From assembly GCA_015065325.1 (NCBI GenBank), contig SVQO01000002.1:93005-157004 (forward strand): a stretch of 64,000 bases of DNA, read 5' to 3'. Within the stretch, counting starts at the first letter, position 1. Each line of letters starts with the position of its first letter. The notes beneath the pieces were generated by a model that ran no database searches, was not told the origin of the DNA, and worked only from the letters and a program-made list of their open reading frames with translations. Positions 3,911 to 26,778 of this stretch are shown piece after piece. The stretch is from Oscillospiraceae bacterium (GTDB lineage: Bacteria; Bacillota; Clostridia; Oscillospirales; SIG627). The position numbers and the translations under genes were made by a program.

Positions 3911-5458
3911 TCAGGGAAGCAAAGCTCCGCTGAAAACGGTAGGCTTTTCACCGTTGGAAAGCTGAACACGGATCTCCACGGTGTTTTCGCCCGTTGCCAG
4001 CTCTTGAATTCCATCGGTCATGGTCCGATAATTTCCGTTTTCGTCCTTCGTCCAGGTGCTGTTGTTGTACGTCATACTCACCTCTCGCAGAGACGCCACC
4101 GTAGCGCGGTACACGTTTTCTTTCAACACGTTGCCGTCCTTGTCCTTCACCGTAACGAACACGTCGGAAACGGTGTAGTTGGAGCCGATATTCATTGCGG
4201 AAAGCTGAGCAAAGGTCAGAGCCGTGGTACCTTCGGGCAGATTGGTGAAGATCTGAGACTTCTCCACTGCCGCGCCGCTCATTGCGCGGATCTCCTCGCG
4301 GGTGAAGGAAAACAGCTTGTAGCGAGACTCAAAGGGAGCTACCGCGTAGGTGGTGTAAAGATCCAGCAGTTTTTTGTCTCCCTCGTCGGCAGGATCGAGA
4401 AATTCCGCAAAAGTAAAGGGGATGTAGGTCTGCTTCTGCAGAGCAGTGAAGGTATAGGGGCACTCGGTCTCGCCCTGATAATACAGATACTTACCGTTTA
4501 CGATCTGCTCAGGACGCCAAGCCTCGGGCTGTTCCAGACAGATGACCACACTGTTGGCGTAGTCAATGGAGCCGTCGGGAAGCTTCTTCATCTGTACCTC
4601 GCGTACCATCATGGTATGTCCGCTGCTGACCAGAAGATCTGCAGGGCGAAGCTGTGCGTAGCACTTGAACATTCCGTCCTCGCCGTTTGCCGCGTTCCAG
4701 TCGCGGATCACGTCCACCGTATCGTACTTGGTCGGGTTATTTGCGGTCTGTACGCCGAACTGGTCGATTTTTTCCATATTGGGATAGGTATATCCCACGG
4801 GAATAAAGCCGTTGGTCAGGGTCATATAGGCAGTTCCGTTGAAATTCGCGGAATTTACGGTTCTTGCCCAGCCCCAGAAGGATCCCCAGGAGCACTGATT
4901 AAAGAAGGTCATCATGCAGCGGTATTTTTTGTACAAATATCCGCCGCGCTGTTCCTGGTCGATCATAGCGCCGTTTTCTTCTCCGTATCCGCCGTTTTCC
5001 GCAAAGGCGCGCTCCAGATCCATTACGGCAGTTTCCTCGTCATAGTATTCCAACCAGCGGTAAAGGCTTCCCATTCCCTTGCTTTGATAAGGGATGCCGC
5101 CGTAGACGTAAAGAGGAGAGATCTTCTTGCGGCTTTTGCCGTAGGTCATATGGTAATCCTTGATCTCCATATTGGAGGTCCAGTGGAAGGTCAACTGCAG
5201 ATTAAAAAAGTCGATGGCAAGTTGGCGGCGATCCTCGATGGACATATCCTCGGTCACGATGGGAAAAGCCTCTACGTCTGCCCGGCGCAAACGGTTGGGA
5301 AGATACTCCTGCTCGGGTTTCTTCGCTTCCTCCTTCTTTTCCTCGGTCTTTTGAGGCACCGCAGTTGCGGTGGTCTTCTCATCCTCTGCACAGCCGGGGA
5401 GCAAGGTGATCAGGGATGAAAGCGCCAAAACCAAAGCGATCAAACGAAATTTTTTCAC
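3911..5458 (-). CDS. Lipoprotein, putative Cys-His hydrolase (CHAP/NlpC-P60-like signature); paralog of 41950..43320
   Basis: GTG start at 5458 lies 8 nt after GGAGG; the tracked ATG at 5530 has no RBS. Signal peptide with lipobox LLPGC. The NQCSWGSFWGWARTVN and SSGHTMMV blocks suggest a papain-like Cys/His pair (inference). Sits directly upstream of alr on the same strand. Confidence 0.6.
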   Translation of the reverse strand: MKKFRLIALVLALSSLITLLPGCAEDEKTTATAVPQKTEEKKEEAKKPEQEYLPNRLRRADVEAFPIVTEDMSIEDRRQLAIDFFNLQLTFHWTSNMEIKDYHMTYGKSRKKISPLYVYGGIPYQSKGMGSLYRWLEYYDEETAVMDLERAFAENGGYGEENGAMIDQEQRGGYLYKKYRCMMTFFNQCSWGSFWGWARTVNSANFNGTAYMTLTNGFIPVGYTYPNMEKIDQFGVQTANNPTKYDTVDVIRDWNAANGEDGMFKCYAQLRPADLLVSSGHTMMVREVQMKKLPDGSIDYANSVVICLEQPEAWRPEQIVNGKYLYYQGETECPYTFTALQKQTYIPFTFAEFLDPADEGDKKLLDLYTTYAVAPFESRYKLFSFTREEIRAMSGAAVEKSQIFTNLPEGTTALTFAQLSAMNIGSNYTVSDVFVTVKDKDGNVLKENVYRATVASLREVSMTYNNSTWTKDENGNYRTMTDGIQELATGENTVEIRVQLSNGEKPTVFSGALLP

Positions 5459-5539
5459 AAATAAAACCTCCTGAAAAGCAATTTGGGGAAAATGCTTTCT
5501 TATTATACCACTTTTCCCCAAAGCTTTCAAGAGGTATTT

Positions 5540-5974
5540 TTACAGATAGGAACGCAGGTCCACCGCCAGCTTTTCTTCCAAGGCGATCAGCCTTTTTGCA
5601 ATATCCTTGGCGCTTTCGTCCGCCGCCTTATATTGGTTCAGGTAGCGGCTCAGGGACTTGACCCCCATATTGCATCCGTCAGTCATCAGCTCCGCTACGG
5701 TGCTGTCCGAGTCCTTCATCCGCATTTTCCACTCGGTCTTCAGCTTACTCATTCCCTCTGCAATGGGATTGGGGTCCTTGCCGTCATCCTTAAATCGGTC
5801 CAGGGCATCCTCAATTTCTCGGCAAAGCTTTTCGTGCTCTTTTTTACAGTTTACCAAAATCTCCTTCATATCGGGATGGCGCACTTGATTTCTCACGTCG
5901 TCCAGGGACTCGATCCCCATTTGCACCCCTGCGTCGCATTCTCTCAGTAGTCGGATCGTATCTTGTTCTATCAT
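5540..5974 (-). CDS. Hypothetical small helical cytoplasmic protein
   Basis: 144-aa ORF preceded by GGAGG (GGAGGTTTTTCCATG). Charged, helix-prone sequence with no signal peptide and no family recognised. Confidence 0.55.
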   Translation of the reverse strand: MIEQDTIRLLRECDAGVQMGIESLDDVRNQVRHPDMKEILVNCKKEHEKLCREIEDALDRFKDDGKDPNPIAEGMSKLKTEWKMRMKDSDSTVAELMTDGCNMGVKSLSRYLNQYKAADESAKDIAKRLIALEEKLAVDLRSYL

Positions 5975-6068: not shown

Positions 6069-8315
6069 TTATTTCCCGGGGAAAAGCGGGTAGTTTTCCT
6101 TGAAGTTGACGTAGAACAGAAGATAAATGGCATCGTCCGAATCCACCTCTCCGCTGGAGTCAAAGTCTGCAGGCTGGCCGAGGGAATACGACTCGGGGAA
6201 GTTGATGGCAAAGAGAAGGTGAATGGCATCCTCCAAAGTAACCTCACCGTTGCCGTCCGTATCGCCCACCACGTAAGGAGGTCTCTCAAAGCCGCAAGCG
6301 TCGCAGATCAGATCGGTGTGATCATCGTAGGCGTGCGGTGTGCGGCTGCTTTCATCGATCGCGGAGCAGACGGAGCACTTCATCCAGTGATTCTCGTCGT
6401 CCTTATCCCGAACCGAGTAATCGTGGGTGATGACTCTTACGTTGTCGCAAGCGTCGCAGGTGGTATCGCAGGCGTTGTCGTAGGTATGAGCGGTGCGGCT
6501 GCTTTCGTCGATCGCGGAGCAAACGGAGCACTTCATCCAGTGATTCTCGTCGTCCTTGTCACGAACCGAGTAATCGTGGGTGATGACTCTTACGTTGTCG
6601 CAAGCGTCGCAGGTGGTATCGCAGGCGTTGTCGTAGCCGTGGGGGGCACGGCTGCTTTCGTCGATCGCAGAGCAGACGGAGCACTTCATCCAGTGATTCT
6701 CGTCGTCCTTGTCACGAACCGAGTAATCGTGGGTAATGACTCTTACGTTGTCGCAAGCGTCGCAGGTGGTATCGCAGGCGTTGTCGTAGCCGTGGGGGGC
6801 ACGGCTGCTTTCGTCAATTGCGGAGCAAACGGAGCACTTCATCCAGTGGGTCTCATCGTCCTTGTCACGAACCGAGTAATCGTGGGTGATGACTCTTACG
6901 TTGTCGCAAGCGTTGCAGGTGGTATCGCAGGCGTTGTCGTAGGTATGAGCGGTGCGGCTGCTTTCGTCAATTGCGGAGCAGACGGAGCACTTCATCCAGT
7001 GATTCTCGTCGTCCTTGTCACGAACCGAGTAATCGTGGGTAATGACTCTCACGTTGTCGCAAACGTCGCAGGTGGTATCGCAGGCGTTGTCGTAGCCGTG
7101 GGGGGCACGGGTGCTTTCATCTGCGGCAGAGCAGACAGAGCACTTCATCCAGTGGGTCTCGTCGTCCTTGTCACGAACCGAGTAATCGTGGGTAACGGTT
7201 CTTTCGTATCCGCAGTCATCACAGACGGCGTCGCAGGAATTGGTATAGCCGTGGGAGGTCACGTTGAACCGTTCGGTACAGCCGGCGGTTTCACAAAGGC
7301 TCCAATGGCCGTTTTCATCTCCTTCGAATACAGCGGAAGCCTTGCACTCGTGGACGGTAACCGTAGCGGTGGAGATCACGCAGTCCCCTGCCTTGCGAAG
7401 CTCGGGAACGATCTGATAATCGTCAAAGACGGCGTCTTCCTTCGCCTTCAGAACCAGCGTAAACACGTCACCGGAAAGGGAAAATTCAGAAGTAGCCGCA
7501 AACACGGCTTCCTTCTCGGGATTGACGGATTGCAGGGTTGCCTTTTCCAAAATGGTTTCGCTCCAGGTGCCCGATACCCACTCAAAGGCGGAAGGATCGT
7601 AGGCGCCGCGGAAATCCATACCGAAACCTCTGACCGTCACGGGAGAGGCGTTGGTCAGGGCGAAGGTCATCTGCACCTGATCGCCGCGATGAATGACATA
7701 ACGGTTGGTGGGCAGAGCACGGACAGCTCCGCAAGCAGAGCAGGTAGTATCCTGAGCTCCGTCGTATTGATGCTTGACGTAGCGCTTGGCGCTGCAAGCG
7801 TTACAGACGCTGTCACAAGCATTGTCATAGGTATGAGGCAGAGAAACGGTATCCCCCTCCGCGACGGCATCCAGTTTGCTGCTGGGAAGGACCTTGATCT
7901 CATAGCTTTCGGCGCAGGTCAGCGAAACCAAAGGCTTGAGCACGATGGAAAATATATCGCCGGAAACGTCAAAAGAACTCATGCCGCCGAAGGCTGCCTG
8001 GGTTCCGGGATTGACAGGCGTCAGCATAGAGCCTGCCTTTACCTGCTGAGACCAGTCACCGCTGACCCACTCGAAAACGGTGTGATCGTAGGCAGTGGCA
8101 TAGTCCAAACCAAAGCCTTGGGTATGGACCGTGGTATTGAGGGAAACGGTTACGGTAACAGTGCCGTCTTCTGCATAATTGTCGGTGGAAACACGGGTCT
8201 TCAGCACCACCTCGGACGCGGCGTTGCCTTCCGTTGCAAGAGGAATTCCCGCCACGGGACCAAGCACCAGGAGAAAAGCCATGAAGAAAGCAGTCAGTTT
8301 CTTGGTTACTCGCAT
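6069..8315 (-). CDS. Secreted scaffoldin-like protein: two cohesin-like domains, Cys/His-rich 51-aa repeats, C-terminal dockerin-like module
   Basis: Signal peptide MRVTKKLTAFFMAFLLVLGPVAG. Two segments fit the cohesin pattern (GTVTVTVSL..QGFGLDY..YDHTVFEWVSG and VQMTFALT..RGFGMDF..YDPSAFEWVSG). At least 6 near-identical repeats HDYSVRDKDDENHWMKCSVCSA..HGYDNACDTTCDACDNVRVIT. The C-terminus has paired calcium-loop-like segments GDTDGNGEVTLEDAIHLLF and ADFDSSGEVDSDDAIYLLF. Confidence 0.8.
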   Translation of the reverse strand: MRVTKKLTAFFMAFLLVLGPVAGIPLATEGNAASEVVLKTRVSTDNYAEDGTVTVTVSLNTTVHTQGFGLDYATAYDHTVFEWVSGDWSQQVKAGSMLTPVNPGTQAAFGGMSSFDVSGDIFSIVLKPLVSLTCAESYEIKVLPSSKLDAVAEGDTVSLPHTYDNACDSVCNACSAKRYVKHQYDGAQDTTCSACGAVRALPTNRYVIHRGDQVQMTFALTNASPVTVRGFGMDFRGAYDPSAFEWVSGTWSETILEKATLQSVNPEKEAVFAATSEFSLSGDVFTLVLKAKEDAVFDDYQIVPELRKAGDCVISTATVTVHECKASAVFEGDENGHWSLCETAGCTERFNVTSHGYTNSCDAVCDDCGYERTVTHDYSVRDKDDETHWMKCSVCSAADESTRAPHGYDNACDTTCDVCDNVRVITHDYSVRDKDDENHWMKCSVCSAIDESSRTAHTYDNACDTTCNACDNVRVITHDYSVRDKDDETHWMKCSVCSAIDESSRAPHGYDNACDTTCDACDNVRVITHDYSVRDKDDENHWMKCSVCSAIDESSRAPHGYDNACDTTCDACDNVRVITHDYSVRDKDDENHWMKCSVCSAIDESSRTAHTYDNACDTTCDACDNVRVITHDYSVRDKDDENHWMKCSVCSAIDESSRTPHAYDDHTDLICDACGFERPPYVVGDTDGNGEVTLEDAIHLLFAINFPESYSLGQPADFDSSGEVDSDDAIYLLFYVNFKENYPLFPGK
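6276..7193 (-). repeat. Six in-frame 153-bp tandem coding repeats (51-aa Cys/His-rich module)
   Basis: The marker CATCCAGTG (codons H-W-M on the minus strand) recurs at 6381, 6534, 6687, 6840, 6993 and 7146, an exact 153-nt period. The copies are nearly identical at nucleotide level. Confidence 0.9.
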
Positions 8316-8368
8316 ATTTGTTCTCCTTATCGTTTTTTATCCCCTGAAAAAGGGTAGAATACAGAACT

Positions 8369-8397
8369 ATTGTATCGTTTTTTCCTTTTTCTGTCAA
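8369..8397 (-). promoter_or_regulatory. Sigma-A-type promoter for 6069..8315
   Basis: The minus strand reads TTGACA, a 17-nt spacer, then TACAAT. Confidence 0.65.
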
Positions 8398-15424: not shown

Positions 15425-18400
15425 GTGAAAAAACGGATATTAAGCTTATTGCTGACGTTGGTGATGCTCATAGGTCTCGTGCCCACGGCGGCATTCCCCG
15501 TCTTTGCGGAGGAGTCGGAGGAGCAGCCTAGCGTTGACAGCGAGGGCAATATCCTTATCTGGTCCTACGAACAGCTCGTCAGTGTTGCACAGAATGCCCG
15601 GATCAATGAAAGCTATCGCCTGGCGACGGATATTTACCAAACGGATAACTCCAACGATCTGGGAATTTGGGTCAGGTGCGACAGCCTTTGGCTGGATCTG
15701 AACGGTCACGTGCTGTCCCGCGAGACAAGGTCGCTGGATTCGGCGTTGTTTTTCGTGTGTGATGGTTCAACGCTGAACATCTATGACTCCTCGCCCGACA
15801 GTACCGGCACCTGCATCTACAATAATAACTATGTTTCTGACCCTTGCAGCGTGATCAATAACAGTGGCGGCAATGTGATCATCAACGGAGGCAACTACAT
15901 CGTCAAAATGGACAACCCCTCAGCCGAAGCCGCCGTATTATACGGCACTTCGGGTGAGTTTACGGTGTACGATGGCTACTTTGACTCTACCCAAGCAAGT
16001 AACGGCAACGCAGTGAAAATGCATTATAGTAACTCTCTCTACGATGAGCCCGACTGTATTATCTACGGCGGTAGGTTCTATAGCAAAAAAACTTGTATCG
16101 AAGCGGGGAGTCTTGCCAACTATTCCGATGTGTATTATCCCTATGTGTTTGTGTTGGGCGGCGAATTTTACACCAAAAGGATCAACGGCGATGAGTATGA
16201 AGGTAATTTCGCCTATTGTAACAACGGCTGGGGACGTGTCATTGCGGCAAACGGTCTGGTGCCCGCGAGATCGTTGAATGCGAGGGATCAGCGGTACGCC
16301 ACGGGCACCACGACAACGGTTGAAACGCTGACAGGAGAGCCCGGCAACGGCTGGGAATATGCTACCGTGACGCCCCCGCCTCGCATCGTAAGCGAGCAGC
16401 TGCCGAAGGAAGACCGCTGGTATTCCCTGTGCTGGCGTGACTACCTGAAAGCGGCAAAAGAGAATGAAAGCTACGATTTTTGGACTGCGAACCAAGAGGC
16501 GATCGAAGCGGAATTGGCAAAGATCGACGGATTTTCGGTCAATATATTCGATACCGAGGTCACTCTCAGCATTGAGGATAAGAAAGAGATCGATTCCGTT
16601 CGCTGGTACGTTTCCGCCTCTCCCGACTCAGGCTGGACAGAGCTTGTCGATTATCAAAACATCACCGGCCCCGTCACGCAGGATCCTCCAAATCCCGGGA
16701 AAACTCTTTATTATCGAGCTGTGGTCACCCGCAAAGGCGGCACCGAATACGAGGATATTATCTACGTAAACTGCAAAGAGCCTAAAAAGGTCAATGTTTC
16801 CGCCGATTTCTCCGGCACACCGTCAAACGCAACCTCCAACACCGACGGTGTTAAGGTAACCTCTACCAAGTGGTATAAGAAGAGCGGTTCCGACTGGGTA
16901 CAGCTCAGTGCATCCGACACCATCAAGGAAGGATATGCCTACCGCTGTGAGATAACTGTTGGCGCAACCGGTACTTTTACGTTTGCAGACGGCTACACCG
17001 TAGAAATTAACGGCATTGCCGCAACCAAGAAATCCGGCAATACCTGGTATGTGGACAGAACCCTTACCGGATATACAAGTTACGTAGACGTTTACGACAT
17101 TGCTCTGCCGGAGGCAGGTGCAAAGCCTGACTTTACCTATAACGACGAGGACTGCCGTCACAGCAGTGTTGCTCTTGTGGAGTGGTTTGAGTGTGATAAG
17201 GACGGCAAGAAACTGAGCGGTGCTTTATCCGCAGACTACAAATTCAAAGAGGATGCCTACTACCGTCTGGAAGTCACCGCAGTACCGGATGCAAATTATA
17301 AGTTTGATACAAGTACCCTTGGCTTCTATATCGGTCCAAAGGCAGTTCAGTTCTACTACCCCTATCAGGATACTACTTATCCTGACAGTGTGACCGGTTG
17401 GAAAGTATACCACGTGGACGATGCCAATGGCACCTATACCGTTCAGATCGGAGATATTACCCTGAAGGACGGCGACTATCTTGCAAACAATGCAACAGCT
17501 GTTACGACCACCAAGCCCTCCGGCGGCTATGCCTACTATAAGGACGGCGTGCTGACGCTGAACAATTTCGTAGCCGCAAAGCTTGTTCGCTACTATGAAA
17601 GATATCTTGAAGTAGAGCTGATCGGTGAGAACAAGATCGGCGCCATTGCAGATTACTACTATTGGGACACTACCTCCAATGATTATTTCACCGGTCTGGA
17701 GTTTTGCGGTGACGGCGATCTGGAATTTGATGACTACTACGATGCCCCGTGCTGCAACGTCAGCGTTAACGGTGACGTGTTCTTCAATGGCAGCGGCGAC
17801 ATTCTTCTCGATGCTGAATTTAATTGTTTCCAGTATACCGATAACGTGATCATCAATGACGGTTATGTGTATTGCTACTGTTCTCAATTCTGTGTGTTCG
17901 GTGATGATACGAACATCACGGTGAACGGCGGCAAGCTGAAAATGTATGACGGCGGCAGCTGGTACGATTATTTCATCTGTGACGGTGATCTTTTGATCTA
18001 CGCAGGCAGCGTGTACGTAAGTACTGATCCGAATAAAACCGAATTGGCAGACTGTGTGCCTTGGGACGGCGTAACTGATCTCAATACCTATGAATGCGTA
18101 TGGATCGTGGAGGAAAGTGCGACTGTCACCCACACCGTAACCTTTAAGGTAGACACTACTACCGTAGCCACCAAGACTGTTGAGGGCGGCAAGACCGTAA
18201 CTGCACCTGCCGATCCCGTGAAGGGCGATTACGACTTCTTCGGTTGGTATACCGACGACGGCGAACTCTTCGATTTTGTTACTCCCATCACCACAGATCT
18301 CACCTTGACCGCAAAATTCGGTTATAACGTATTCTTCTGGCTGGATCCTTCTGATGAATATCCTGTTGCATGGCGTGATGCAGAACCGGGACAGACAATT

Positions 18401-18739
18401 GAGGAACAAGGCGAACCCGGTCGGGTGGGTATGGTCTTTGTCGGTTGGTTTACGGATCCCGTCGGCGGCACGAAGTTCGACTACTCCACACCCATCACGG
18501 GGCGTCTTAACCTTTATGCAAGATTCGCGCCCGCTTCCTCTTACCTCAAGGGCGACGTAGACGGAAACGGCGTGGTGGATATGGACGATGCCATTTATCT
18601 CTTGTTCGCCATCAACTTCCCCGAAAGCTACCCCTTAAATCAGCCCGCAAACTTTGACGGAGTAGGCGAGGAGGATATGGATGATGCCATTTATCTTCTG
18701 TTCCACGTGAATTTCTCTGCAAATTATCCGCTACATTGA
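15425..18739 (+). CDS. Large secreted protein: beta-helix-like repeats, two Listeria-Bacteroides-type repeats, C-terminal dockerin-like module
   Basis: GTG start 8 nt after AAGGAGG, with a signal peptide. G/N-rich segments (NNSGGNVIINGGNYIV; ITVNGGKLKMYDGG). Two repeats of the type TVTFKVD..GKTVTAPADPVKGDYDFFGWYTDDGELFDF. The C-terminus has GDVDGNGVVDMDDAIYLLF and NFDGVGEEDMDDAIYLLF. Confidence 0.8.
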   Translation: MKKRILSLLLTLVMLIGLVPTAAFPVFAEESEEQPSVDSEGNILIWSYEQLVSVAQNARINESYRLATDIYQTDNSNDLGIWVRCDSLWLDLNGHVLSRETRSLDSALFFVCDGSTLNIYDSSPDSTGTCIYNNNYVSDPCSVINNSGGNVIINGGNYIVKMDNPSAEAAVLYGTSGEFTVYDGYFDSTQASNGNAVKMHYSNSLYDEPDCIIYGGRFYSKKTCIEAGSLANYSDVYYPYVFVLGGEFYTKRINGDEYEGNFAYCNNGWGRVIAANGLVPARSLNARDQRYATGTTTTVETLTGEPGNGWEYATVTPPPRIVSEQLPKEDRWYSLCWRDYLKAAKENESYDFWTANQEAIEAELAKIDGFSVNIFDTEVTLSIEDKKEIDSVRWYVSASPDSGWTELVDYQNITGPVTQDPPNPGKTLYYRAVVTRKGGTEYEDIIYVNCKEPKKVNVSADFSGTPSNATSNTDGVKVTSTKWYKKSGSDWVQLSASDTIKEGYAYRCEITVGATGTFTFADGYTVEINGIAATKKSGNTWYVDRTLTGYTSYVDVYDIALPEAGAKPDFTYNDEDCRHSSVALVEWFECDKDGKKLSGALSADYKFKEDAYYRLEVTAVPDANYKFDTSTLGFYIGPKAVQFYYPYQDTTYPDSVTGWKVYHVDDANGTYTVQIGDITLKDGDYLANNATAVTTTKPSGGYAYYKDGVLTLNNFVAAKLVRYYERYLEVELIGENKIGAIADYYYWDTTSNDYFTGLEFCGDGDLEFDDYYDAPCCNVSVNGDVFFNGSGDILLDAEFNCFQYTDNVIINDGYVYCYCSQFCVFGDDTNITVNGGKLKMYDGGSWYDYFICDGDLLIYAGSVYVSTDPNKTELADCVPWDGVTDLNTYECVWIVEESATVTHTVTFKVDTTTVATKTVEGGKTVTAPADPVKGDYDFFGWYTDDGELFDFVTPITTDLTLTAKFGYNVFFWLDPSDEYPVAWRDAEPGQTIEEQGEPGRVGMVFVGWFTDPVGGTKFDYSTPITGRLNLYARFAPASSYLKGDVDGNGVVDMDDAIYLLFAINFPESYPLNQPANFDGVGEEDMDDAIYLLFHVNFSANYPLH

Positions 18740-20206: not shown

Positions 20207-21205
20207 GTGGCAAAATCATCCCGACAAAAACAAAAAATTCTATATTTGGCAAAATTTTTTCTGGAAGAAACCGACGAGGACCATCCCGCAAGTATGAGTG
20301 ACATTCTTGCCTACCTTTCCCGCGCAGGCATTGAGGCGGAACGCAAAAGCATTTATTCCGATCTGGAGGAGCTGAGTCTGTTCGGTCTGGATATCGTAAC
20401 GCTCCGAGGCAGAGGCGGCGGATATTTTTTGGGAGAACGGGATTTTCAGTTGCCCGAGGTTCGCCTTTTGGTGGATGCAGTGCAGTCCTCCCGCTTTCTC
20501 ACCCGCAAAAAAAGCGAGGAGCTGATCAAAAAGCTTCGCTCCCTCACCTCCCGACACCAATCCTCGGCACTAAGCCACACCGTGTCCGTTTCCGGACGGA
20601 TCAAAACCATGAACGAAAGCATCTACCGCAACGTGGATGCCATCGGCGGTGCCATTGAGCGGGGACACAAGATCCGTTTTCAGTATTTTGAATGGACGCC
20701 TGAGGGCAAAAAAAAGCTTCGCCGCGACGGGGAGCGCTACACCGTTTCCCCCTTCTTTCTGATCTGGGACAACGAGAATTATTACCTGATCGGCGTAGAG
20801 GAAAAAAGCGGCGAAAAACGGCATTTTCGCGTGGATAAGATGCTTTCCATCGAGGAGGTCGACCTGCTTCGCCAAGGGAAAGAACTTTTGGAGGGCGTAT
20901 CCCCCGCAGACTACGAAAACCGCGTATTCGGTATGTACGCAGGGAAGGAGGAGCGAGTCACTCTGCGATGGAGCAATTCCCTCAGCGGCGTCTTTTACGA
21001 CCGCTTCGGCGGCGATATGACTGTTCGCAAGGATGGAGACGGCTTTATCTCCTCCCACCGACTGATGATCAGCCCCGTATTTTACGCCTTTTTGATGGGC
21101 TTCGGCGGAGACGTGAAGATCCTGGAGCCCCAATGGGTCAAGGAGGAATTTTTCAACCTTGTGAAAAAGAATCTTGCCCCTTACGAAAGTGAGAACACCC
21201 TATGA
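20207..21205 (+). CDS. WYL domain transcriptional regulator (HTH-WYL)
   Basis: GTG start 6 nt after GGAGGG. N-terminal HTH-like segment (MSDILAYLSRAGIEAERKSIYSDLEEL). WYL-type core YTVSPFFLIWDNENYYLIGVEEKSGEKRHFRVDKM. Confidence 0.8.
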   Translation: MAKSSRQKQKILYLAKFFLEETDEDHPASMSDILAYLSRAGIEAERKSIYSDLEELSLFGLDIVTLRGRGGGYFLGERDFQLPEVRLLVDAVQSSRFLTRKKSEELIKKLRSLTSRHQSSALSHTVSVSGRIKTMNESIYRNVDAIGGAIERGHKIRFQYFEWTPEGKKKLRRDGERYTVSPFFLIWDNENYYLIGVEEKSGEKRHFRVDKMLSIEEVDLLRQGKELLEGVSPADYENRVFGMYAGKEERVTLRWSNSLSGVFYDRFGGDMTVRKDGDGFISSHRLMISPVFYAFLMGFGGDVKILEPQWVKEEFFNLVKKNLAPYESENTL

Positions 21206-22347
21206 AAAAAAGCTTACTTTTTCTGTCCCTTTCCCTGTTGCTTTGCACTCTGTTGAGCTTCGGGGCACAGGGCGCCTCCAAGGGAAGAATGTCCTTGAGC
21301 GGCGAGCTGACGGATCTGAAGCCGGGCAGCACCGTGGAGCTTACGGTTCTCCTCAACCAAAATCCCGGCGTCACCTCTCTGCGCTGCACGGTGGGCTTTG
21401 ACCCCAAGGTGCTGAAATTCGTTTCCGCAAAAGGAACGAAGACCCTGCCCGATTTCAGCTTTGAGGAACGGGAGGACGGAGTCCTTCTTCGATGGAACAG
21501 CGAAACGGATACCGTAGCCGCAGGCGAGGTGGCAAAGCTCACGCTGCGGGTAAAAAAGAACGCGCTTTTCGGAGACAGTGCCGTGACCCTTTCCGTTTCC
21601 GAAGCACTGTTCGACGCACAAAACAGCCGCGGGGAAGCCGTCCCCTTTGATACCGCGGGAATGAGCTTTACCCTGTCCTGTCCCCACGACGATCCCGAAC
21701 AGACCGTCGAGCTGGAGCCCACCTTCGAAACGGAGGGAATTCTGAAGCAGACCTGTCCCGTTTGCGGAAACGCGGATCTTCTTCCTCTGCTCCCCGAGGT
21801 GGAAAGCGCCGACGGCAGAGTGAAGGTCGCCTTTGCCGCAGGAGAGTTTTCCAACGGCAACCGCGTGGACGTGTTCATCGATCCCCTCTTTGCAGTCACG
21901 GAGGAGAAGGAAGCGCGGAAAATGCTGGGCAGCGATATGCTCCGTGCCTTTCGCATCCGTATTCTGAAGGACGGGGAGCCTTATATCCCCATTCGGGACT
22001 GCACCGTCAGCCTCCGCTACGACGCCTTTCTGCCCGAGGGGACGGTGCTTTACCTTCTGATGGACGGCGGTGCCTTACAACCGAAATTCACCCGCGAGGG
22101 ATCGGTCCTGACGTTTTCTTACAGCCCCGAGCTGTTCGCTCTGGTTGCCCGCACCCCTTACGAGGAGCCCGAGGTGCCTACGACCACCGCAAAGCCCACC
22201 ACCGCCACCGTCCGTCCCACCACCACCGAGGATCCCGTGGAAAAAGCACGGAGAAAGGATCTTTTTCTCATCGCCGCTGGCTGTGTTACCCTGCTTTTGT
22301 GCGGGACGGGAATGATCCTGCTTCTCGGGAGAAGAAAGCGTTTCTGA
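21202..22347 (+). CDS. Membrane-anchored cohesin-like surface protein
   Basis: ATGA overlap with the WYL gene stop. Signal peptide. LKPGSTVELTVLLNQNPGVTSLRCTVGFDPKVLKFVSAKG follows the cohesin consensus pattern (KPGDTV..V......G....F.Y DP.VL). Pro/Thr linker PTTTAKPTTATVRPTTTEDP, one C-terminal TM helix, then RRKRF. Confidence 0.7.
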   Translation: MKKSLLFLSLSLLLCTLLSFGAQGASKGRMSLSGELTDLKPGSTVELTVLLNQNPGVTSLRCTVGFDPKVLKFVSAKGTKTLPDFSFEEREDGVLLRWNSETDTVAAGEVAKLTLRVKKNALFGDSAVTLSVSEALFDAQNSRGEAVPFDTAGMSFTLSCPHDDPEQTVELEPTFETEGILKQTCPVCGNADLLPLLPEVESADGRVKVAFAAGEFSNGNRVDVFIDPLFAVTEEKEARKMLGSDMLRAFRIRILKDGEPYIPIRDCTVSLRYDAFLPEGTVLYLLMDGGALQPKFTREGSVLTFSYSPELFALVARTPYEEPEVPTTTAKPTTATVRPTTTEDPVEKARRKDLFLIAAGCVTLLLCGTGMILLLGRRKRF

Positions 22348-22585: not shown

Positions 22586-23077
22586 ATGGCTCATTTAAGT
22601 GACGCGGCAGTAGCAAAGATCAACGAGATCTGCGATCGCTATGCCGACGAAAGAACACCCTTGATGATGATCCTGAGTGATATCCAGAAGGAATACGGCT
22701 ATATTCCCCTGGAGGTTCAGGAACTGGTCTCCGCAAAAACCGGAGTCAGCGTTGCCGAGATCTACGGTGTAGTAACCTTCTACTCCTTCTTCTCTCTCAA
22801 GCCCAAAGGAAAGTACATCATTGGCGTATGCCTCGGTACTGCTTGCTACGTAAAGGGTGCACAGCAGGTTATCGACAAATTTTCCGAGATCCTGAAGATC
22901 GCTCCCGGTGAGACCACCGAAGACGGTCTGTTTACCATTGATGCACTCCGCTGCATCGGTGCCTGCGGCATCGCTCCCGCAGTATCCATTAACGGAAAAG
23001 TTTACCCCAAGGTAGAAGTAAAGGCAATCCCCGGTATCATCGAGGAACTGCGCGCTGAGGGAGGTGCAAACGCATGA
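22586..23077 (+). CDS. hydC: [FeFe]-hydrogenase NuoE-like [2Fe-2S] subunit
   Basis: 163 aa, thioredoxin-like 2Fe-2S family with Cys pairs in GVCLGTACYV and RCIGACGIAP. First gene of a three-gene set with NuoF-like and HydA genes. Confidence 0.9.
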   Translation: MAHLSDAAVAKINEICDRYADERTPLMMILSDIQKEYGYIPLEVQELVSAKTGVSVAEIYGVVTFYSFFSLKPKGKYIIGVCLGTACYVKGAQQVIDKFSEILKIAPGETTEDGLFTIDALRCIGACGIAPAVSINGKVYPKVEVKAIPGIIEELRAEGGANA

Positions 23078-24957
23078 TTAAGAATTTTGAAGAACTGGAA
23101 GCAAAGCAGGCACAGTGTGCCAAGTGTATGGAAGGCAAGTTCCAGGGCGAAAGCGGTAAAAGAGCCGTCGTACTTTGCGGCGGTACCGGCTGTCTGTCCT
23201 CCAACTCTGCCGAGATCCAGCAGAAGTTCAAGGATCTGATCCGCGAGAAGGGTCTGGAAGAAAAGGTTACCGTCAACCAGGTCGGTTGCTTCGGTTTCTG
23301 CTCTCAGGGTCCCTTCGTAAAGATCTATCCCGAAGATACTCTTTACAGACTGGTTACTCTGGAAGACGTTGAGGAGATCGTTGAGAAGGACTTGATCGGC
23401 GGTGAGACCATCGAGAGACTTCTTTACATCGACCCCGTTACCCAGGAAAAGATCGCCAAGCAGGAGGACATCACCTTCTACAAGAAGCAGGTGAGAGTTG
23501 CTCTCCACGGTTGCGGCGTGATCAATCCCGAAGATATCAACGAGGCTCTGGGCGCCGACGCCTTCAAGGGTCTTGCTAAGGCTTTGAAGATGGACCGCAA
23601 GGCAGTTATCGATGAGATTTTGGCTTCCGGTCTCCGTGGCAGAGGCGGCGGAGGATTCCCCACCGGTATGAAGTGGACCTTCGCTTACAATCAGCCCGAC
23701 GGCGAGAAGTATGTTGTATGTAACGGCGACGAGGGTGACCCCGGCGCATTTATGGACCGTTCCATTCTGGAGGGCAACCCCCTTGCAGTTATCGAGGGTA
23801 TGGCAATCGCCGCTTACGCCATCGGTGCACAGAACGGTTACTTCTACGTTCGTGCTGAGTACCCCATCGCCGTAAACCGTTTGAAGCTGGCGATCAAGCA
23901 AGCTGAGGAGATCGGCCTTTTGGGTGACAACATTTTGGGTACCGACTTCTCCTTCCGCGCACACATCCGTCTGGGTGCAGGTGCATTCGTTTGCGGCGAG
24001 GAGACTGCTCTGTTGAACTCCATCGAGGGTCAGCGCGGTATGCCCCGTCCCCGTCCTCCCTTCCCTGCAGTAAAGGGTCTGTGGGATTGTCCCACCATCG
24101 TAAACAACGTAGAGACTTTGGCTTGCGTTCCCTACGTTCTCCGCAACGGTGCTGACTCCGTGAAGCAGTACGGTACCGAAAAGAGTGCAGGCACCAAGGT
24201 ATTTGCTCTCGGCGGTAAGATCAACAACGTTGGTCTGGTTGAGATCCCCATGGGTACCACTCTGCGCGAGCTGATCTACGACATCGGCGGCGGTATCCCC
24301 GACGGCAAGAAGTTTAAGGCAATTCAGACCGGCGGTCCTTCCGGCGGATGTCTGACCGAAAAGGATCTGGACACCCCCATCGACTTCGACAACCTGGTTG
24401 CAAAGGGCTCTATGATGGGCTCCGGCGGCGCAATCGTAATGGACGAAGACAACTGTATGGTTGACGTTGCAAAATTCTATATGGAGTTTATCTGCGACGA
24501 GTCCTGCGGTAAGTGTTCTCCCTGCCGTATCGGTACCAAGAGACTGCTCGAGTACCTCCAGAAGATCACCGACGGCAAGGCTACCATGAAGGATCTGGAA
24601 GAACTGGAAGAACTGGCTCAGACCATTAAGATCGGTTCTCTCTGCGCTCTGGGTCAGACCGCAGCAAACCCCGTACTTTCCACCCTGGCCTCCTTCCGCG
24701 ACGAGTACATCGCTCACATCGAGAAGAAGGAATGTCCCGCAAAGGTCTGCAAGAATCTGATGAAGTACACCATCGAGCAGGATAAGTGCTTCGGTTGCGG
24801 CGTATGCGCAAGAGCTTGTCCCGTTGATGCGATCCACAAGACCGACTACACCGCTCCCGGTAAGAAGCTTCCTTCCTACCAGATCGACGCTGACAAGTGC
24901 GTTAAGTGCGGTATGTGTATGTCTTCTTGTAAGTTCCACGCAATCGTAAAGAAATAA
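23074..24957 (+). CDS. hydB: [FeFe]-hydrogenase NuoF-like flavoprotein subunit
   Basis: GLRGRGGGGFPTGMKW FMN/NADH block and CGKCSPCR cluster motif. Two C-terminal ferredoxin motifs (CFGCGVCARACP, CVKCGMCMSSC). ATGA overlap with hydC. Confidence 0.9.
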   Translation: MIKNFEELEAKQAQCAKCMEGKFQGESGKRAVVLCGGTGCLSSNSAEIQQKFKDLIREKGLEEKVTVNQVGCFGFCSQGPFVKIYPEDTLYRLVTLEDVEEIVEKDLIGGETIERLLYIDPVTQEKIAKQEDITFYKKQVRVALHGCGVINPEDINEALGADAFKGLAKALKMDRKAVIDEILASGLRGRGGGGFPTGMKWTFAYNQPDGEKYVVCNGDEGDPGAFMDRSILEGNPLAVIEGMAIAAYAIGAQNGYFYVRAEYPIAVNRLKLAIKQAEEIGLLGDNILGTDFSFRAHIRLGAGAFVCGEETALLNSIEGQRGMPRPRPPFPAVKGLWDCPTIVNNVETLACVPYVLRNGADSVKQYGTEKSAGTKVFALGGKINNVGLVEIPMGTTLRELIYDIGGGIPDGKKFKAIQTGGPSGGCLTEKDLDTPIDFDNLVAKGSMMGSGGAIVMDEDNCMVDVAKFYMEFICDESCGKCSPCRIGTKRLLEYLQKITDGKATMKDLEELEELAQTIKIGSLCALGQTAANPVLSTLASFRDEYIAHIEKKECPAKVCKNLMKYTIEQDKCFGCGVCARACPVDAIHKTDYTAPGKKLPSYQIDADKCVKCGMCMSSCKFHAIVKK

Positions 24958-24972
24958 GGAGGAAAGCGGATC

Positions 24973-26778
24973 ATGGCAAAAATTAATTTGATTATCGAAG
25001 GTATCCCCTACGAAGTTGAAGCAGGGCTTACCGTTCTTGAAGCCGCTCGCCTTTGCGGCTATGAAATCCCCACCCTCTGCGCTTTCAACCACGGCGAGTG
25101 CAACAGAGGCTCCTGCCGTGTATGTCTGGTAGAGGTTCAGGAAGGCAGAAAGAACGACGCCGGCGAGGTTATGTACGGTCCTCAGCGTCTGGTTGCTTCC
25201 TGCGTTTACCCCATCACCCCCGACATGAAGGTCATCATCTCCTCCCCCAAGGCTACCGCTGCCCGCCGCGCTTCCGTAGAGCTGCTTCTCTCCAACCACT
25301 CTATGAAGTGCCAGCAGTGCGATAAGAACGAGAAGTGCGAGCTTCTCCACGTTGCAAAGATCACCGGTGCCAGAGAGGATATGTTCCTTGGTACTCAAAC
25401 CGAGACCACCTACGACGACGTTACCCCCTCCATCGTTCGCGACACCTCTAAGTGCGTGCTCTGCGGCAGATGCGTTGCCCGCTGTGCAAACGCTCACGGC
25501 GACGGCGTTTTGACCTTCCAGAACAGAGGCTTTAAGACTATCATCGGACCTGCGCAGAACAGAACCTTCGACAAGGCTCCCTGTATCATGTGCGGTCAGT
25601 GTATCAACGTATGTCCCACCGGTGCTCTGATGGAGAAGAACGACATTGCAAAGGTTGACGCTGCAATGGCTTCCGGCAAGTACGTAGTGGTTCAGACCGC
25701 TCCCGCAGTTCGTGCCGCTCTCGGTGAAGAGTTCGGTATGAAGATCGGTACTCCCGTTACCGGTAAGATGGTTGCGGCTCTCAGAAGACTGGGCTTCAAG
25801 AAGGTATTCGATACCAACTTTGCCGCAGACCTTACCATTATGGAAGAAGCTACCGAGCTGCTCGGCAGAATCAAGAACGGCGGCAAGCTTCCTATGATCA
25901 CCTCCTGCTCTCCCGGATGGGTCAATTACGCCGAGATCCGTTACAACGATCTTCTCGGTCACCTGTCCTCCTGCAAGTCTCCTCACGAAATGATGGGCTC
26001 CGTTCTGAAGCACTTCTGGGCTGAGAAGGCAGGCATCAAGGCAGAGGATCTGTTCGTTGTTTCCGTAATGCCCTGTTCCTCCAAGAAGTACGAGGCAGAT
26101 CGTGAACAGCTCAAGACCCGCGGTCTCAAGGACGTTGACGCAGTTCTCACCACCAGAGAGCTGGGCAGACTCATCAAGAGAAGCGGTATCAACTTTGTAA
26201 AGCTCCCCGATGAAGAATTTGATATGGACCTGATCGGTGAATACACCGGTGCAGGCGTTATCTTCGGTGTTACCGGCGGCGTTATGGAGGCTGCAGTTCG
26301 TACTGCTCACTTCGTTCTCACCGGCAAGGAGATCGAAGGCGTGAAGTTCGAAGCTGCCCGCGGCTTTGACGGCATCAAGGAAGCAAGCCTTGACCTCAAC
26401 GGTCAGACCATTAACATCGCAGTTGCTCACGGCATGAAGAATGCAAAGGTTCTGCTGGACCAGATCCGCGCAGGCGAGAGCAAGTATCACTTCATCGAGA
26501 TCATGGGATGCCCCGGCGGTTGTATCAACGGCGGCGGTCAGCCCTACGTGAGAGAGTGCTTCCTCCCCAACGAGGACGCTGACATTCTGGACACCTACAA
26601 GGCTAAGCGTGCCGCAGCCCTCTACTCCGAGGACGAGAGACAGACCGTTCGTCAGTCTCACAACAATCCTCAGATCAAGGCTCTGTACGAGCAGTTCCTT
26701 GGCGAGCCCAACTCTCACCTGGCGCACGAGCTTTTGCACACCGAATACGTTGCAAGAGTTCCCTTCCCCGAAAACTAA
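24973..26778 (+). CDS. hydA: [FeFe]-hydrogenase catalytic subunit
   Basis: N-terminal 2Fe-2S and 4Fe-4S Cys motifs (CVLCGRCVARC, CIMCGQCINVCP). H-cluster motifs MPCSSKKYE and EIMGCPGGCINGGGQP. The L1 motif reads TSCSPGW rather than TSCCPxW. Confidence 0.9.
   Translation: MAKINLIIEGIPYEVEAGLTVLEAARLCGYEIPTLCAFNHGECNRGSCRVCLVEVQEGRKNDAGEVMYGPQRLVASCVYPITPDMKVIISSPKATAARRASVELLLSNHSMKCQQCDKNEKCELLHVAKITGAREDMFLGTQTETTYDDVTPSIVRDTSKCVLCGRCVARCANAHGDGVLTFQNRGFKTIIGPAQNRTFDKAPCIMCGQCINVCPTGALMEKNDIAKVDAAMASGKYVVVQTAPAVRAALGEEFGMKIGTPVTGKMVAALRRLGFKKVFDTNFAADLTIMEEATELLGRIKNGGKLPMITSCSPGWVNYAEIRYNDLLGHLSSCKSPHEMMGSVLKHFWAEKAGIKAEDLFVVSVMPCSSKKYEADREQLKTRGLKDVDAVLTTRELGRLIKRSGINFVKLPDEEFDMDLIGEYTGAGVIFGVTGGVMEAAVRTAHFVLTGKEIEGVKFEAARGFDGIKEASLDLNGQTINIAVAHGMKNAKVLLDQIRAGESKYHFIEIMGCPGGCINGGGQPYVRECFLPNEDADILDTYKAKRAAALYSEDERQTVRQSHNNPQIKALYEQFLGEPNSHLAHELLHTEYVARVPFPEN

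Follow-up and report, generated by a model that had tools for sequence, protein, structure and literature searches.

What kind of protein module does a tandem array of 153-nt repeats encode inside the gene of a secreted cohesin protein, and what would such an array do there? The array lies within positions 6276-7193 of the window (the whole stretch of DNA analysed, 64,000 nucleotides from an Oscillospiraceae bacterium, one of the gut or rumen Clostridia), on the minus strand and inside the gene of a 748-aa protein (6069-8315). We consider it probable that the array forms a rod-like stalk of tiny, most likely zinc-binding modules whose sites are shared between neighbours. The module type is very common and unnamed, and it was first noted in 2025, in a protease that cuts IgA.

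The gene and its repeat array

NCBI lists the same protein as MBE6712126.1, annotated as hypothetical, from a Ruminococcaceae/Oscillospiraceae MAG. From the N-terminus it reads signal peptide, cohesin, B-b, cohesin, A'-B0, (A-B)x6 and dockerin, A and B being the two module types described below. The features of this gene, and of a second cohesin gene to which we return, are the following.

8369-8397, minus strand: promoter-like site TTGACA-17-TACAAT upstream of the gene, 11 of 12 consensus positions, a consensus match only
directly before the ATG at 8315, minus strand: ribosome-binding site AAGGAGA, from the upstream sequence
6069-8315, minus strand: gene of the 748-aa secreted protein, from the open reading frame and domain searches
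8217-8315, minus strand: signal peptide, aa 1-33 (approximate), read from the sequence as a basic N-terminus and then a hydrophobic run
7845-8216, minus strand: cohesin-like domain 1, aa 34-157 (approximate), Pfam Cohesin
7710-7844, minus strand: inter-cohesin pair of B modules (B, b), aa 158-202
7356-7709, minus strand: cohesin-like domain 2, aa 203-320 (approximate), Pfam Cohesin, best stretch aa 210-296
7260-7355, minus strand: module A', a degenerate first A-type module, aa 321-352 (H322, C324, H337-W, C341-x4-C346)
7194-7259, minus strand: module B0, aa 353-374 (H355, C361, C365, C368)
7041-7193, minus strand: unit 1 (A+B), aa 375-425 (H376, H388, C392, C395, H406, C412, C416, C419)
6888-7040, minus strand: unit 2, aa 426-476
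6735-6887, minus strand: unit 3, aa 477-527
6582-6734, minus strand: unit 4, aa 528-578
6429-6581, minus strand: unit 5, aa 579-629
6276-6428, minus strand: unit 6 (divergent), aa 630-680
6072-6275, minus strand: probable dockerin, aa 681-748, two Ca-loop/helix segments, 'DTDGNGEVTLEDAIHLLF' and 'DFDSSGEVDSDDAIYLLF'
21202-22347, plus strand: gene of a membrane-anchored cohesin protein, Pfam Cohesin 35.5 bits (cut-off 24.1)

Pfam Cohesin matches the 748-aa protein in two stretches at 38.8 bits (cut-off 24.1), and its orthologues carry PF00963 (Cohesin). The Dockerin_1 model scores 14.4 bits, under its cut-off of 22.9; the duplicated loop motif can be read from the sequence, and the model reaches its cut-off in close homologues (P0005 and P0022 carry Dockerin_1). 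A signal-peptide-like N-terminus is found, by a heuristic, in 125 of 149 family members. The plus-strand open reading frame at 6219-8357 (712 aa) is treated as an antisense shadow, since it is the minus strand that encodes the signal peptide, the cohesins, the dockerin and the sequences of all homologues.

Tandem Repeats Finder reports a single array at 6325-7193 with a period of 153, 5.7 copies, 91% matches, 0 indels and a score of 1409. The sequence CATCCAGTG occurs in six exact copies, starting at 6381, 6534, 6687, 6840, 6993 and 7146, whereas shuffled sequence held a mean of 0.31 matches and reached six copies in 0 of 100 shuffles. The periodicity and the six positions given in a preliminary description of this DNA are thus confirmed, as are the protein sequences that it listed for the units, six of 51 aa that occupy aa 375-680. 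The degenerate copies that it saw beside the array are real as well, being B and b (aa 158-202) between the cohesins and A' and B0 (aa 321-374).

The units had been called near-identical, which is fair for units 1-5, with pairwise identities of 86-97% in DNA and 84-98% in protein (unit 5 and unit 2 are 97% identical in DNA), and too strong for unit 6, which shares 75-79% of its DNA and 69-76% of its protein sequence with the other units. Units differ at 4-21 of 153 positions (3-14%), and the longest exact match from one unit to another spans 80 nt. Among units 1-5, synonymous codon changes equal or outnumber non-synonymous ones (8/8, 7/3 and 6/1, for instance), which argues that the copies diverged under purifying selection and that there was no very recent burst. 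The expansion, previously taken to be recent, is therefore better described as lineage-specific, yet not very recent.

The A and B modules and their relatives

The 51-aa unit, at first read as one module, consists of two consecutive mini-modules, A then B, and in other proteins B alone is strung together in as many as 47 consecutive copies. Module A follows the pattern H-x11-H-x3-C-x2-C. Module B is 21-22 aa long and follows H-x5-C-x3-C-x2-C, with the fuller consensus H-x-Y-D-N-x-C-D-x-x-C-N-x-C-G-x-x-R. Across 17 diverse A-B units H2, H14, C18, C21, H32, D39, C42 and C45 are invariant, and 40 of the 42 cysteines in the window protein fall within modules. Modules that close an array deviate at one position. 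Between the cohesins the first B module holds H161, C167, C171 and C174, and in the second, the terminal 'b' (H182, C192, C195), the first Cys is replaced by Gln; the B module of unit 6, also terminal, has Thr in place of the first Cys and retains H661, C671 and C674.

The unit had not been recognised as a named domain, which stands in so far as Pfam, NCBIfam and the PDB hold no family at cut-off and no solved structure covering module A or B. The NCBIfam search of the window protein returned zero matches, a repeat-specific family was absent in 53 of 53 scanned family members, precomputed matches from a newer Pfam release were faint only, and direct phmmer comparison of the array with PDB sequences gave chance collagen NC1 matches only. 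Pfam PAS_3 scored 41.7 bits over the whole protein (cut-off 25.6, E 1.4e-10) with no individually significant stretch, and was rejected as a sum of weak repeat matches. The model zf-C17orf113 remained at 24.5 bits, under its cut-off of 29.5, and CysS_C, ATE_N, rubrerythrin and Zn_ribbon_GTF2H2 were below cut-off or faint.

The module is nevertheless not without described kin. By profile comparison, module A is homologous to ZBD1 and ZBD2 (= CTD2/CTD4), putatively zinc-binding domains of the Thomasclavelia ramosa IgA protease, for which models and SAXS led in 2025 to the proposal of a new rod-like 'metal-associated periscope' fold (PMC12237041, PMC12415215). Profile A1 aligns with subdomain II of ZBD2 at an hhalign probability of 96.4% and E 1.3e-9, with matching His and Cys positions; it finds 9qa6_A among PDB sequences at E 0.019, and the same entry is matched by P0009, a member of the family, at E 3.4e-22. 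The link surfaced only via a profile and a bridging homologue. The 'HWSLCETAGC' of A' resembles 'HWHECTVAGC' of ZBD1.

The protease domain is ~110 A long for 129 residues, with no disulfides seen (PMC12237041), and SAXS data for CTD2 agree with a rod in full extension (PMC12415215); by SEC-SAXS, on the other hand, the C-terminal domains ZBD1, BB8 and ZBD2 are joined by flexible linkers, which counts against a stiff rod. Three-stranded sheets lie end to end there (PMC12237041), and three strands are predicted for each A module here. In both proteins His2Cys2 and Cys3His sites would sit between consecutive sub-modules; in the protease they are modelled only, 'pending experimental validation' (PMC12237041), and here they are inferred. 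Lack of disulfides and an elongated shape, predicted for our array, would be common to both, and each stalk (ours a proposed one) belongs to a surface protein that a gut species of Bacillota secretes. The two systems also differ. Protease domains are built of 2-3 non-identical sub-modules, whereas here the 51-aa A-B unit recurs six times with high identity; the aligned protease stretches contain no B-type 22-residue module, and the homology concerns module A only; and the protease is sortase-anchored, unlike the cohesin-dockerin protein of the window.

Clustered at 50% identity, relatives of the modules make up 4,554 groups; a single protein can have as many as 64 matched stretches, and module numbers reach about 60 per protein. 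The genomes with matches are all gut or rumen Clostridia, strict anaerobes, and the partner domains are LRR_5, dockerin, SH3_3, cohesin, choline-binding, SLH and Big_3. Three homologue searches returned matches of no more than about 1.7 times the query length and so missed long array proteins, the third of them, with a 56-aa profile, giving 4 short proteins only; the long array proteins were recovered by an exhaustive representative search and a genome scan. Literature searches covering zinc-related and Cys-rich repeats, in cohesin-dockerin proteins and in surface proteins of Firmicutes, turned up no description of the B module.

Putative metal sites shared between neighbours

AF2 models have pLDDT values of 93.9 for B-A-B-A-B and 91.8 for one unit, with 90-95 over the B0 stretch, and the array model has a pTM of 0.65. 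DSSP on these models assigns three strands to each A module (at 28-31, 35-39 and 46-53, a pattern that the next unit repeats) and isolated bridges only to B modules. Foldseek gave no significant match for the five-module model in the PDB and BFVD (best PDB E 0.87) or for the single unit in the PDB (best E 1.4), PDB matches having a TM of at most 0.36. The best local matches, which are non-significant, are zinc ribbon and knuckle domains with an rmsd of 1.5-2.8 A over 20-34 residues.

The preliminary description had proposed an extracellular zinc ribbon or disulfide knot, of which an extracellular Cys/His module, most likely binding zinc, is retained; the Foldseek results speak against a classical zinc ribbon. 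Like classical ribbons and knuckles (TFIIS/Rpb9, TFIIB/Brf1, aIF2-beta, retroviral CCHC) the modules place a C-x2-C knuckle beside a small beta-sheet, and faint Pfam matches fall in zinc-ribbon families. A classical ribbon, however, has two knuckles, whereas each module here has one C-x2-C, the other two ligands being presumably a lone His and a residue of the neighbouring module. In addition, the modules are extracellular and tandem, and 0 of 53 scanned members carry a nucleic-acid-binding partner domain.

Sharing of ligands between neighbours is suggested by covariation in ~2,200 module pairs, an analysis in which related repeats are counted and p-values are inflated for that reason. Where the first Cys of a module is lost, a Cys or His is found two residues before the His of the next module in 65% of cases versus 0.1% (Fisher 1.6e-86), whereas within the same module the two features are unlinked (3.8% versus 4.7%, p = 0.63). 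Loss with the compensating Cys/His at -2 occurs in 25 different proteins and the opposite pattern in 2. A next module follows 92% of the B modules that have the first Cys versus 36% of those without it, and in related MAGs Cys-less 'b' modules stand at array ends, just before dockerins. Together these patterns suggest that the putative metal site of a module is completed by the first Cys (or His) of the one before it. A ligand set confined to one module (H, C1, C2 and C3) was set aside, since loss of C1 tracks the next module and not its own, and since terminal modules lose C1. The first module of ZBD2 in the IgA protease starts with 'HIHDY', which fits the [C/H]-x-H rule.

We propose that each module would form a tetrahedral site from three of its own residues, the leading His and the C-x2-C knuckle, and would receive the fourth ligand from the preceding module, namely the residue four before the knuckle there, a Cys where that module is of type B and the 'HW' His where it is of type A. 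Site A (Cys3His) would comprise C38 of the preceding B module with H2, C18 and C21, and site B (Cys2His2) H14, H32, C42 and C45. The Cys5/His3 content of the unit, once parsed as a CxxC pair plus a triplet, would in this way resolve into two four-ligand sites. The interlocked scheme fills 15 of 16 sites in the window protein and leaves the H161 site incomplete. Cys or His at -2 is absent in about a third of the modules that follow a Cys-less module and in ~85% of first-in-array modules; some of these sites would then have three protein ligands only, or another ligand. Module A would be a three-stranded beta-sheet and module B a 22-residue knuckle, and metals would staple adjacent modules into a stiff chain, a rod-like stalk. 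The rod shape has indirect support in the high pLDDT, the pTM and the SAXS of the homologous CTD2. The ligand-swap rule (first Cys of module n, or [C/H]-x-H in module n+1) offers direct targets for mutagenesis.

Positions outside the predicted sites are also conserved. In 1,774 B modules C7 is present in 88%, D8 in 96%, R18 in 96%, N12 in 81% and Y3 in 86%, the search pattern itself having fixed H1, C11 and C14. It is conceivable, though unlikely, that the modules are binding units for a glycan, a host molecule or a cell-surface component, which they would contact through Y3, D4, N5, D8, N12 and R18 of B, as in a multivalent adhesin or a lectin-like region and not in a passive stalk. The strong conservation at non-ligand positions would fit such a role, as would adhesin-type partners (for example BspA-type LRR, SH3_3 and a lectin-like domain) and the fact that some periscope stalk domains also bind ligands (PMC8201768). 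Yet structural caps, a D8-R18 pair and the N12 knuckle, are a simpler explanation for a coreless module of 22 residues, the ZBDs are dispensable for IgA cleavage by the IgA protease (PMC12237041), and no carbohydrate-binding family was matched in Pfam by the window protein and 53 family members.

Length of the proposed stalk and the cohesin-dockerin setting

As the stalk that we favour would sit between the two cohesins and the C-terminal dockerin, the number of units could set the distance from cargo to anchor, and recombination between the similar DNA copies may gain or lose units and alter stalk length. Copy-number variation had been anticipated, and public short-read metagenome assemblies do differ: otherwise 100% identical proteins of 748, 697 and 595 aa have 6, 5 and 3 units, and more distant orthologues have 0 or 1. 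The 697-aa variant (P0047) lacks one unit's worth, spanning units 4/5. The three versions may reflect either true length variation or assembly collapse.

That the six-unit array is itself an assembly artefact, not present in the organism as drawn, is unlikely. The 5-unit (1 contig) and 3-unit (8 contigs) versions are otherwise identical to it, and the 3-unit versions fall into 4 forms that differ in their middle units, as collapse would give. Nevertheless, the exact 748-aa protein is found on 16 contigs (20 kb to >200 kb, the longest of 323,942 bases), and the differences between units, with no exact repeat beyond 80 nt, mean that k-mers longer than 80 resolve the array. Since collapse lowers the count, six is more probably a floor than an overcount.

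A close parallel is given by the Periscope Proteins (SasG/Aap G5-E, Rib, SHIRT; PMC8201768), which have tandem, highly similar repeats of just over 50 aa encoded by similar DNA copies. The window array is of this kind, with units of 51 aa and 84-98% protein identity among units 1-5, and may share with them the rod-like stalk (predicted here) and length variation between otherwise identical genes, variants of the window protein being known only from short-read metagenome assemblies, where collapse may be their cause. Periscope repeats, however, have a hydrophobic core or long single-layer sheets, unlike the unrelated, predicted metal-held fold of our modules; each 'repeat' of the window array is two modules, and a dockerin, the putative attachment, takes the place of a wall anchor.

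Metals might be bound for their own sake, in surface zinc buffering or storage, zinc sensing or iron redox, and not for stiffening, a role we regard as quite improbable. The ~16 predicted sites of the window protein, and the many modules of its relatives, would suit it; but full Cys/His tetrahedral sites are typical of slow-exchange structural zinc (zinc-finger classification cited in PMC12415215), the modules are invariably found linking functional domains, and no metal-transport gene link was seen around the window gene. Disulfides in place of metal, as in EGF-like or Cys-rich knotted extracellular repeats and as the disulfide-knot proposal implied, would accord with the extracellular location and the high Cys density and are highly improbable in view of the odd Cys counts (three per B module, five per unit), the interchange of Cys and His at one position, the compensation of a missing Cys by Cys or His, the strictly anaerobic gut Clostridia that are all hosts, and the homologous disulfide-free domains of the IgA protease, which required reducing agent to stay monodisperse (PMC12237041).

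A broader generalisation we hold more tentatively than the stalk itself, at somewhat less than an even chance: the B module and its A-type relative may represent a major class, as yet unnamed, of zinc modules forming extracellular 'chain links', widely used in gut and rumen Clostridia. Each site would be completed by a ligand from the preceding module, and the resulting stiff rod, adjustable in length and nearly devoid of a hydrophobic core, would space adhesins, enzymes and cohesin-dockerin assemblies. They would then be among the smallest repeat units known for rigid extracellular stalks, with metal staples replacing a protein core. If so, the integrity of the stalk could depend on the zinc supply of the gut, and a testable link would follow between gut zinc availability and the architecture of the bacterial surface and of cellulosome-like complexes. 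With no Pfam or NCBIfam model, the modules leave long 'unannotated' stretches in thousands of gut and rumen surface proteins, which a family model together with one solved structure would annotate, validating also the putative ZBD fold of T. ramosa.

Scaffoldin linkers are usually Pro/Thr-rich or X modules. The window protein resembles cellulosome-like scaffoldins and adaptors in joining two cohesins and a C-terminal dockerin (sub-cut-off here) in one secreted protein, and differs from scaffoldins in its Cys/His mini-module linkers. Also as in such systems, there is a second protein with a cohesin, this one membrane-anchored and encoded 13 kb from the first (21202-22347), a candidate anchor for dockerin-bearing proteins. 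It contains one related module of the long type ('SCPHDD...PTFETEGILKQTCPVCG'), a Pro/Thr linker and a C-terminal TM helix. The related element that had been noticed behind its cohesin-like domain is real, as PTFETEGILKQTCPVCG aligns with PTCGTEGVMTYTCSVCG, a longer module type of the same family, at a pairwise E of 9e-6.

The repeat array and its gene

Tandem Repeats Finder places a single array at 6325-7193 (period 153, 5.7 copies, 91% matches, 0 indels, score 1409), and the marker CATCCAGTG occurs exactly 6 times in 153-nt steps, compared to a mean of 0.31 matches in shuffled sequences, bearing out the preliminary description of six exact occurrences at a 153-nt period. The array is encoded on the minus strand within ORF 6069..8315 (748 aa), which has the ribosome-binding site AAGGAGA and, upstream, a near-consensus promoter-like site (11/12 positions). 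An opposite-strand ORF of 712 aa (6219..8357, +) was considered as a gene and rejected as a shadow of the repeat gene; other long antisense ORFs in the window overlap real genes and resemble shadow ORFs of a ~53% GC genome. Immediately downstream of the repeat gene lie genes of ~515 aa (3911-5530, -) and ~144 aa (5540-5974, -), neither of which has a Pfam match. The same two genes trail the repeat gene on an independent JGI contig (L080), and the three may be co-transcribed.

The exact protein is found at NCBI as MBE6712126.1, a hypothetical protein of a Ruminococcaceae/Oscillospiraceae MAG. Its order is signal peptide, cohesin, two short modules, cohesin, a degenerate module pair (A'-B0), six units each consisting of a module A and a module B, and dockerin. 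Cohesin is matched over two stretches (Pfam 38.8 bits vs cut-off 24.1), and the probable dockerin stays below the Pfam cut-off (14.4 bits vs 22.9), but its duplicated Ca-loop motif can be read in the sequence. Degenerate copies beside the array, as previously noted, are present in the form of A'-B0 and the short modules:

aa 158-202: two short inter-cohesin modules
aa 321-374: degenerate module pair A'-B0
aa 375-680 (window 6276-7193, minus strand): six in-register 51-aa units

The term "near-identical" suits units 1-5 (86-97% DNA and 84-98% protein identity) and not unit 6 (75-79% and 69-76%). As synonymous codon changes among units 1-5 at least equal the non-synonymous ones in number, these units have been kept by purifying selection for a while.

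Two modules per unit and proposed metal sites shared between neighbours

Rather than the single 51-aa module first described, each unit comprises two, A (H-x11-H-x3-C-x2-C) and B (H-x5-C-x3-C-x2-C), the latter occurring alone in other proteins as a 21-22-residue repeat with up to 47 consecutive copies and 61 per ORF. It follows from the two patterns that His occupies position -4 from the knuckle in module A and Cys does so in module B, and the "Cys5/His3" composition thus represents two four-ligand sets. Among 17 diverse aligned A-B units H2, H14, C18, C21, H32, D39, C42 and C45 are invariant and C38 is variable; the consensus of 1,774 B modules is H-x-Y-D-N-x-C(88%)-D(96%)-x-x-C-N(81%)-x-C-G(71%)-x-x-R(96%).

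Presence of the first Cys of module B (C1) goes with what follows the module. Another module comes next in 92% (1,433/1,565) of the B modules that carry C1, compared to 36% (75/210) of those that do not; in related MAGs the arrays end with the Cys-less module, ahead of a dockerin or other domain, and in the window protein Cys-less modules are also terminal (aa 182-195 and unit 6). When a module has C1 (as Cys or His), Cys or His at -2 from the leading His of the next module was found in 3/2,152 cases, and when C1 is missing in 57/88 (Fisher 1.6e-86), an effect close to all-or-none even though the relatedness of the repeats inflates the p-values. Loss of C1 together with [C/H]-x-H in the next module was seen in 25 different proteins and the opposite pattern in 2, and [C/H]-x-H occurs in ~15% of first-in-array modules vs 0.15% of modules behind a C1. 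The same test conducted within modules showed no effect (4.7% vs 3.8%, p = 0.63). The simplest reading is that each site would consist of the leading His and C-x2-C of one module and C1 of the preceding module, and that without a C1-bearing neighbour the local [C/H]-x-H would stand in for it as fourth ligand. Ligands would accordingly be shared by neighbours, a revision of the initial description as a CxxC pair and a CxxxCxxC triplet.

Predicted sites of the window protein (the pattern continues from B1 to B6)
A': H322, C324, C341, C346
B0: H337, H355, C365, C368
A1: C361, H376, C392, C395
B1: H388, H406, C416, C419
B6: H643, H661, C671, C674

Modules hold 40/42 cysteines of the protein and 15/16 predicted sites are complete, the sole exception being the first inter-cohesin site (H161, C171, C174), for which a fourth ligand was not found. 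Of the original guess of a zinc ribbon or a disulfide knot, the metal part appears largely right, as Cys/His interchange, odd numbers of Cys and hosts that are anaerobes argue for metal sites and against disulfide knots.

An AlphaFold2 model of B0-A1-B1-A2-B2 (129 aa, 22-row alignment; mean pLDDT 93.9, pTM 0.65) has three strands per A module and B modules without regular secondary structure; a single unit was modelled at pLDDT 91.8. Foldseek found no significant match to these models in PDB/BFVD. The best local matches (Pol I A12.2, Rpb9, Brf1, XPA and aIF2-beta; rmsd 1.5-2.8 Å over 20-34 residues) suggest a knuckle-like local shape of the modelled modules, a non-significant likeness to zinc ribbons and zinc fingers that is no proof of membership.

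Kinship with IgA protease and extent of the family

Searches of the window protein against Pfam and NCBIfam yielded nothing above cut-off over the repeats, precomputed matches of a newer Pfam release gave faint ones only, and Pfam on 53 family members matched no family to the repeats themselves, in agreement with the view that the module is not a named domain. It is nevertheless not without prior art, as putative zinc-binding domains of this type were described in 2025 in an IgA protease (ZBD/CTD2-4). The unit profile had one match among PDB sequences, 9qa6_A "IgA protease" (E 0.019). Family member P0009, which matches the array of the window protein at E 1.2e-17, also matched 9qa6_A (E 3.4e-22), its A-B module aligning to chain residues 1071-1112. 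A profile-sequence comparison of the unit with this stretch reached a probability of 96.4% (E 1.3e-9), and in it H, HW, C and H line up.

According to PMC12237041, 9QA6 is a cryo-EM entry of a Thomasclavelia ramosa IgA protease ectodomain construct, and the putative zinc-binding domains ZBD1 (E879-T1008) and ZBD2 (G1101-T1171), described from AlphaFold3 models, are elongated (~110 Å per 129 residues), built of three-stranded sub-domains and not needed for catalysis; PMC12415215 reports CTD2 (ZBD1) as a fully extended rod by SAXS. Site placement in the ZBD models, as given there, matches the covariation result obtained here independently, and ZBD2 opens with HIHDY, in line with the H-x-H rule. 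Judged from sequence, the window array is a variant of this recently noticed and so far modelled fold. In the accessible parts of both papers the 22-residue B module, long arrays and the family size are undescribed.

Among gut Clostridia the ZBD-type fold proves very common. Scanning GTDB species representatives with a few exact peptides of the window protein gave 216 confirmed places, and all 78 distinct loci retained (78/78) are in gut/rumen Clostridia MAGs (Acutalibacteraceae, Oscillospiraceae, Christensenellaceae, Lachnospiraceae and Ruminococcus). An exhaustive HMMER search of the unit profile against 1.84 billion cluster representatives matched 4,554 proteins at E <= 1e-3, of which 1,962 also reach E <= 1e-10 and 504 reach E <= 1e-30; the proteins are up to 5,478 aa long, with up to 64 matched stretches each. 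A signal-peptide-like N-terminus was seen in 125 of the 149 best family proteins, a C-terminal TM segment in 42 and dockerin-like loops in 28. Pfam partners in the 53 members were BspA-type LRR (15), LRR_8 (9), dockerin (6), SH3_3 (6) and cohesin (4), as well as choline-binding repeats, Big_3, Flg_new, SLH, peptidase C1 and a lectin-like domain.

Nine members (P0006, P0008, P0010, P0016, P0021, P0023, P0025, P0026 and P0028) are small lipoproteins whose mature part, directly past the lipobox Cys, reads K-C-E-H-T-Y-D-N-A-C-D, a first module in the C-x-H form, and the family is therefore also found directly at the membrane surface. Giant ORFs of >1,500-3,600 aa with 29-61 B-type modules occur at loci L006 (JAZORK010000043.1), L023 and L017 of Acutalibacteraceae/Ruminococcus MAGs; the higher-order spacing in L006 (22, 47, 62 and 84 residues) suggests super-repeats of several module types. 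The secreted P0014 has four B modules, a TM anchor and a ubiquitin-family domain (Pfam E 3.4e-17), the last an unusual extracellular partner.

Copy number, a putative stalk and neighbouring surface proteins

The best-supported reading is that the array would be a metal-stapled stalk setting the distance from the two cohesins to the dockerin. Its length, extrapolated from the 110 Å per 129 residues of ZBD1, would be ~4 nm for each unit and ~30 nm over aa 321-680. In repeat length and identity the array falls within the operational definition of Periscope Proteins (repeats >50 aa, identity >=80%; PMC8201768). Alternatively, the conserved polar surface of the modules could serve multivalent ligand binding, or the metal sites buffering or sensing.

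A further rival reading is that the copy number is artefactual. The 90% cluster contains a 697-aa protein, identical save for one unit fewer, and four 595-aa three-unit proteins (P0188-P0191) differing only in the middle unit kept, all of which could be either real recombinants or collapsed assemblies. Against an artefact, 16 contigs ranging from 20 kb to >200 kb (the longest of 323,942 bases) encode the exact 748-aa protein, and since the longest exact inter-unit repeat is 80 nt, assemblers with k >80 can resolve the array, which makes six units a credible count and, if anything, a lower bound. The differences among P0188-P0191 hint that the variation reflects, at least in part, genuine diversity of the population rather than collapse alone; one version has a D-to-E change (KEDEN) present in no window unit. 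Distant orthologues (45-48% identity) have one A-B unit or none.

The window protein looks like an adaptor in a cohesin-dockerin system, the existence of which in this organism is indicated by a second cohesin gene 13 kb away:

21202..22347, plus strand: second cohesin protein, 381 aa (cohesin Pfam 35.5 bits)

This protein consists of a signal peptide, cohesin, one long-type Cys/His module and a further unassigned domain, followed by a Pro/Thr linker and, at the C-terminus, a TM helix; it may serve to anchor dockerin proteins, the window protein among them, to the membrane. Its module, starting with SCPHDD (C-x-H) and ending with TCPVCG, is related to those of the array and present in one copy, confirming the related element noted earlier. 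A 1,104-aa ORF at 15425-18739 (+) with Listeria-Bacteroides repeats (Pfam Flg_new, E 2.2e-19) likely encodes a surface protein. Adjoining the second cohesin gene are a 332-aa ORF resembling a transcription regulator (20207-21205, +) and ORFs whose paired CxxCG motifs may mark Fe-S subunits (22586-26778, +).
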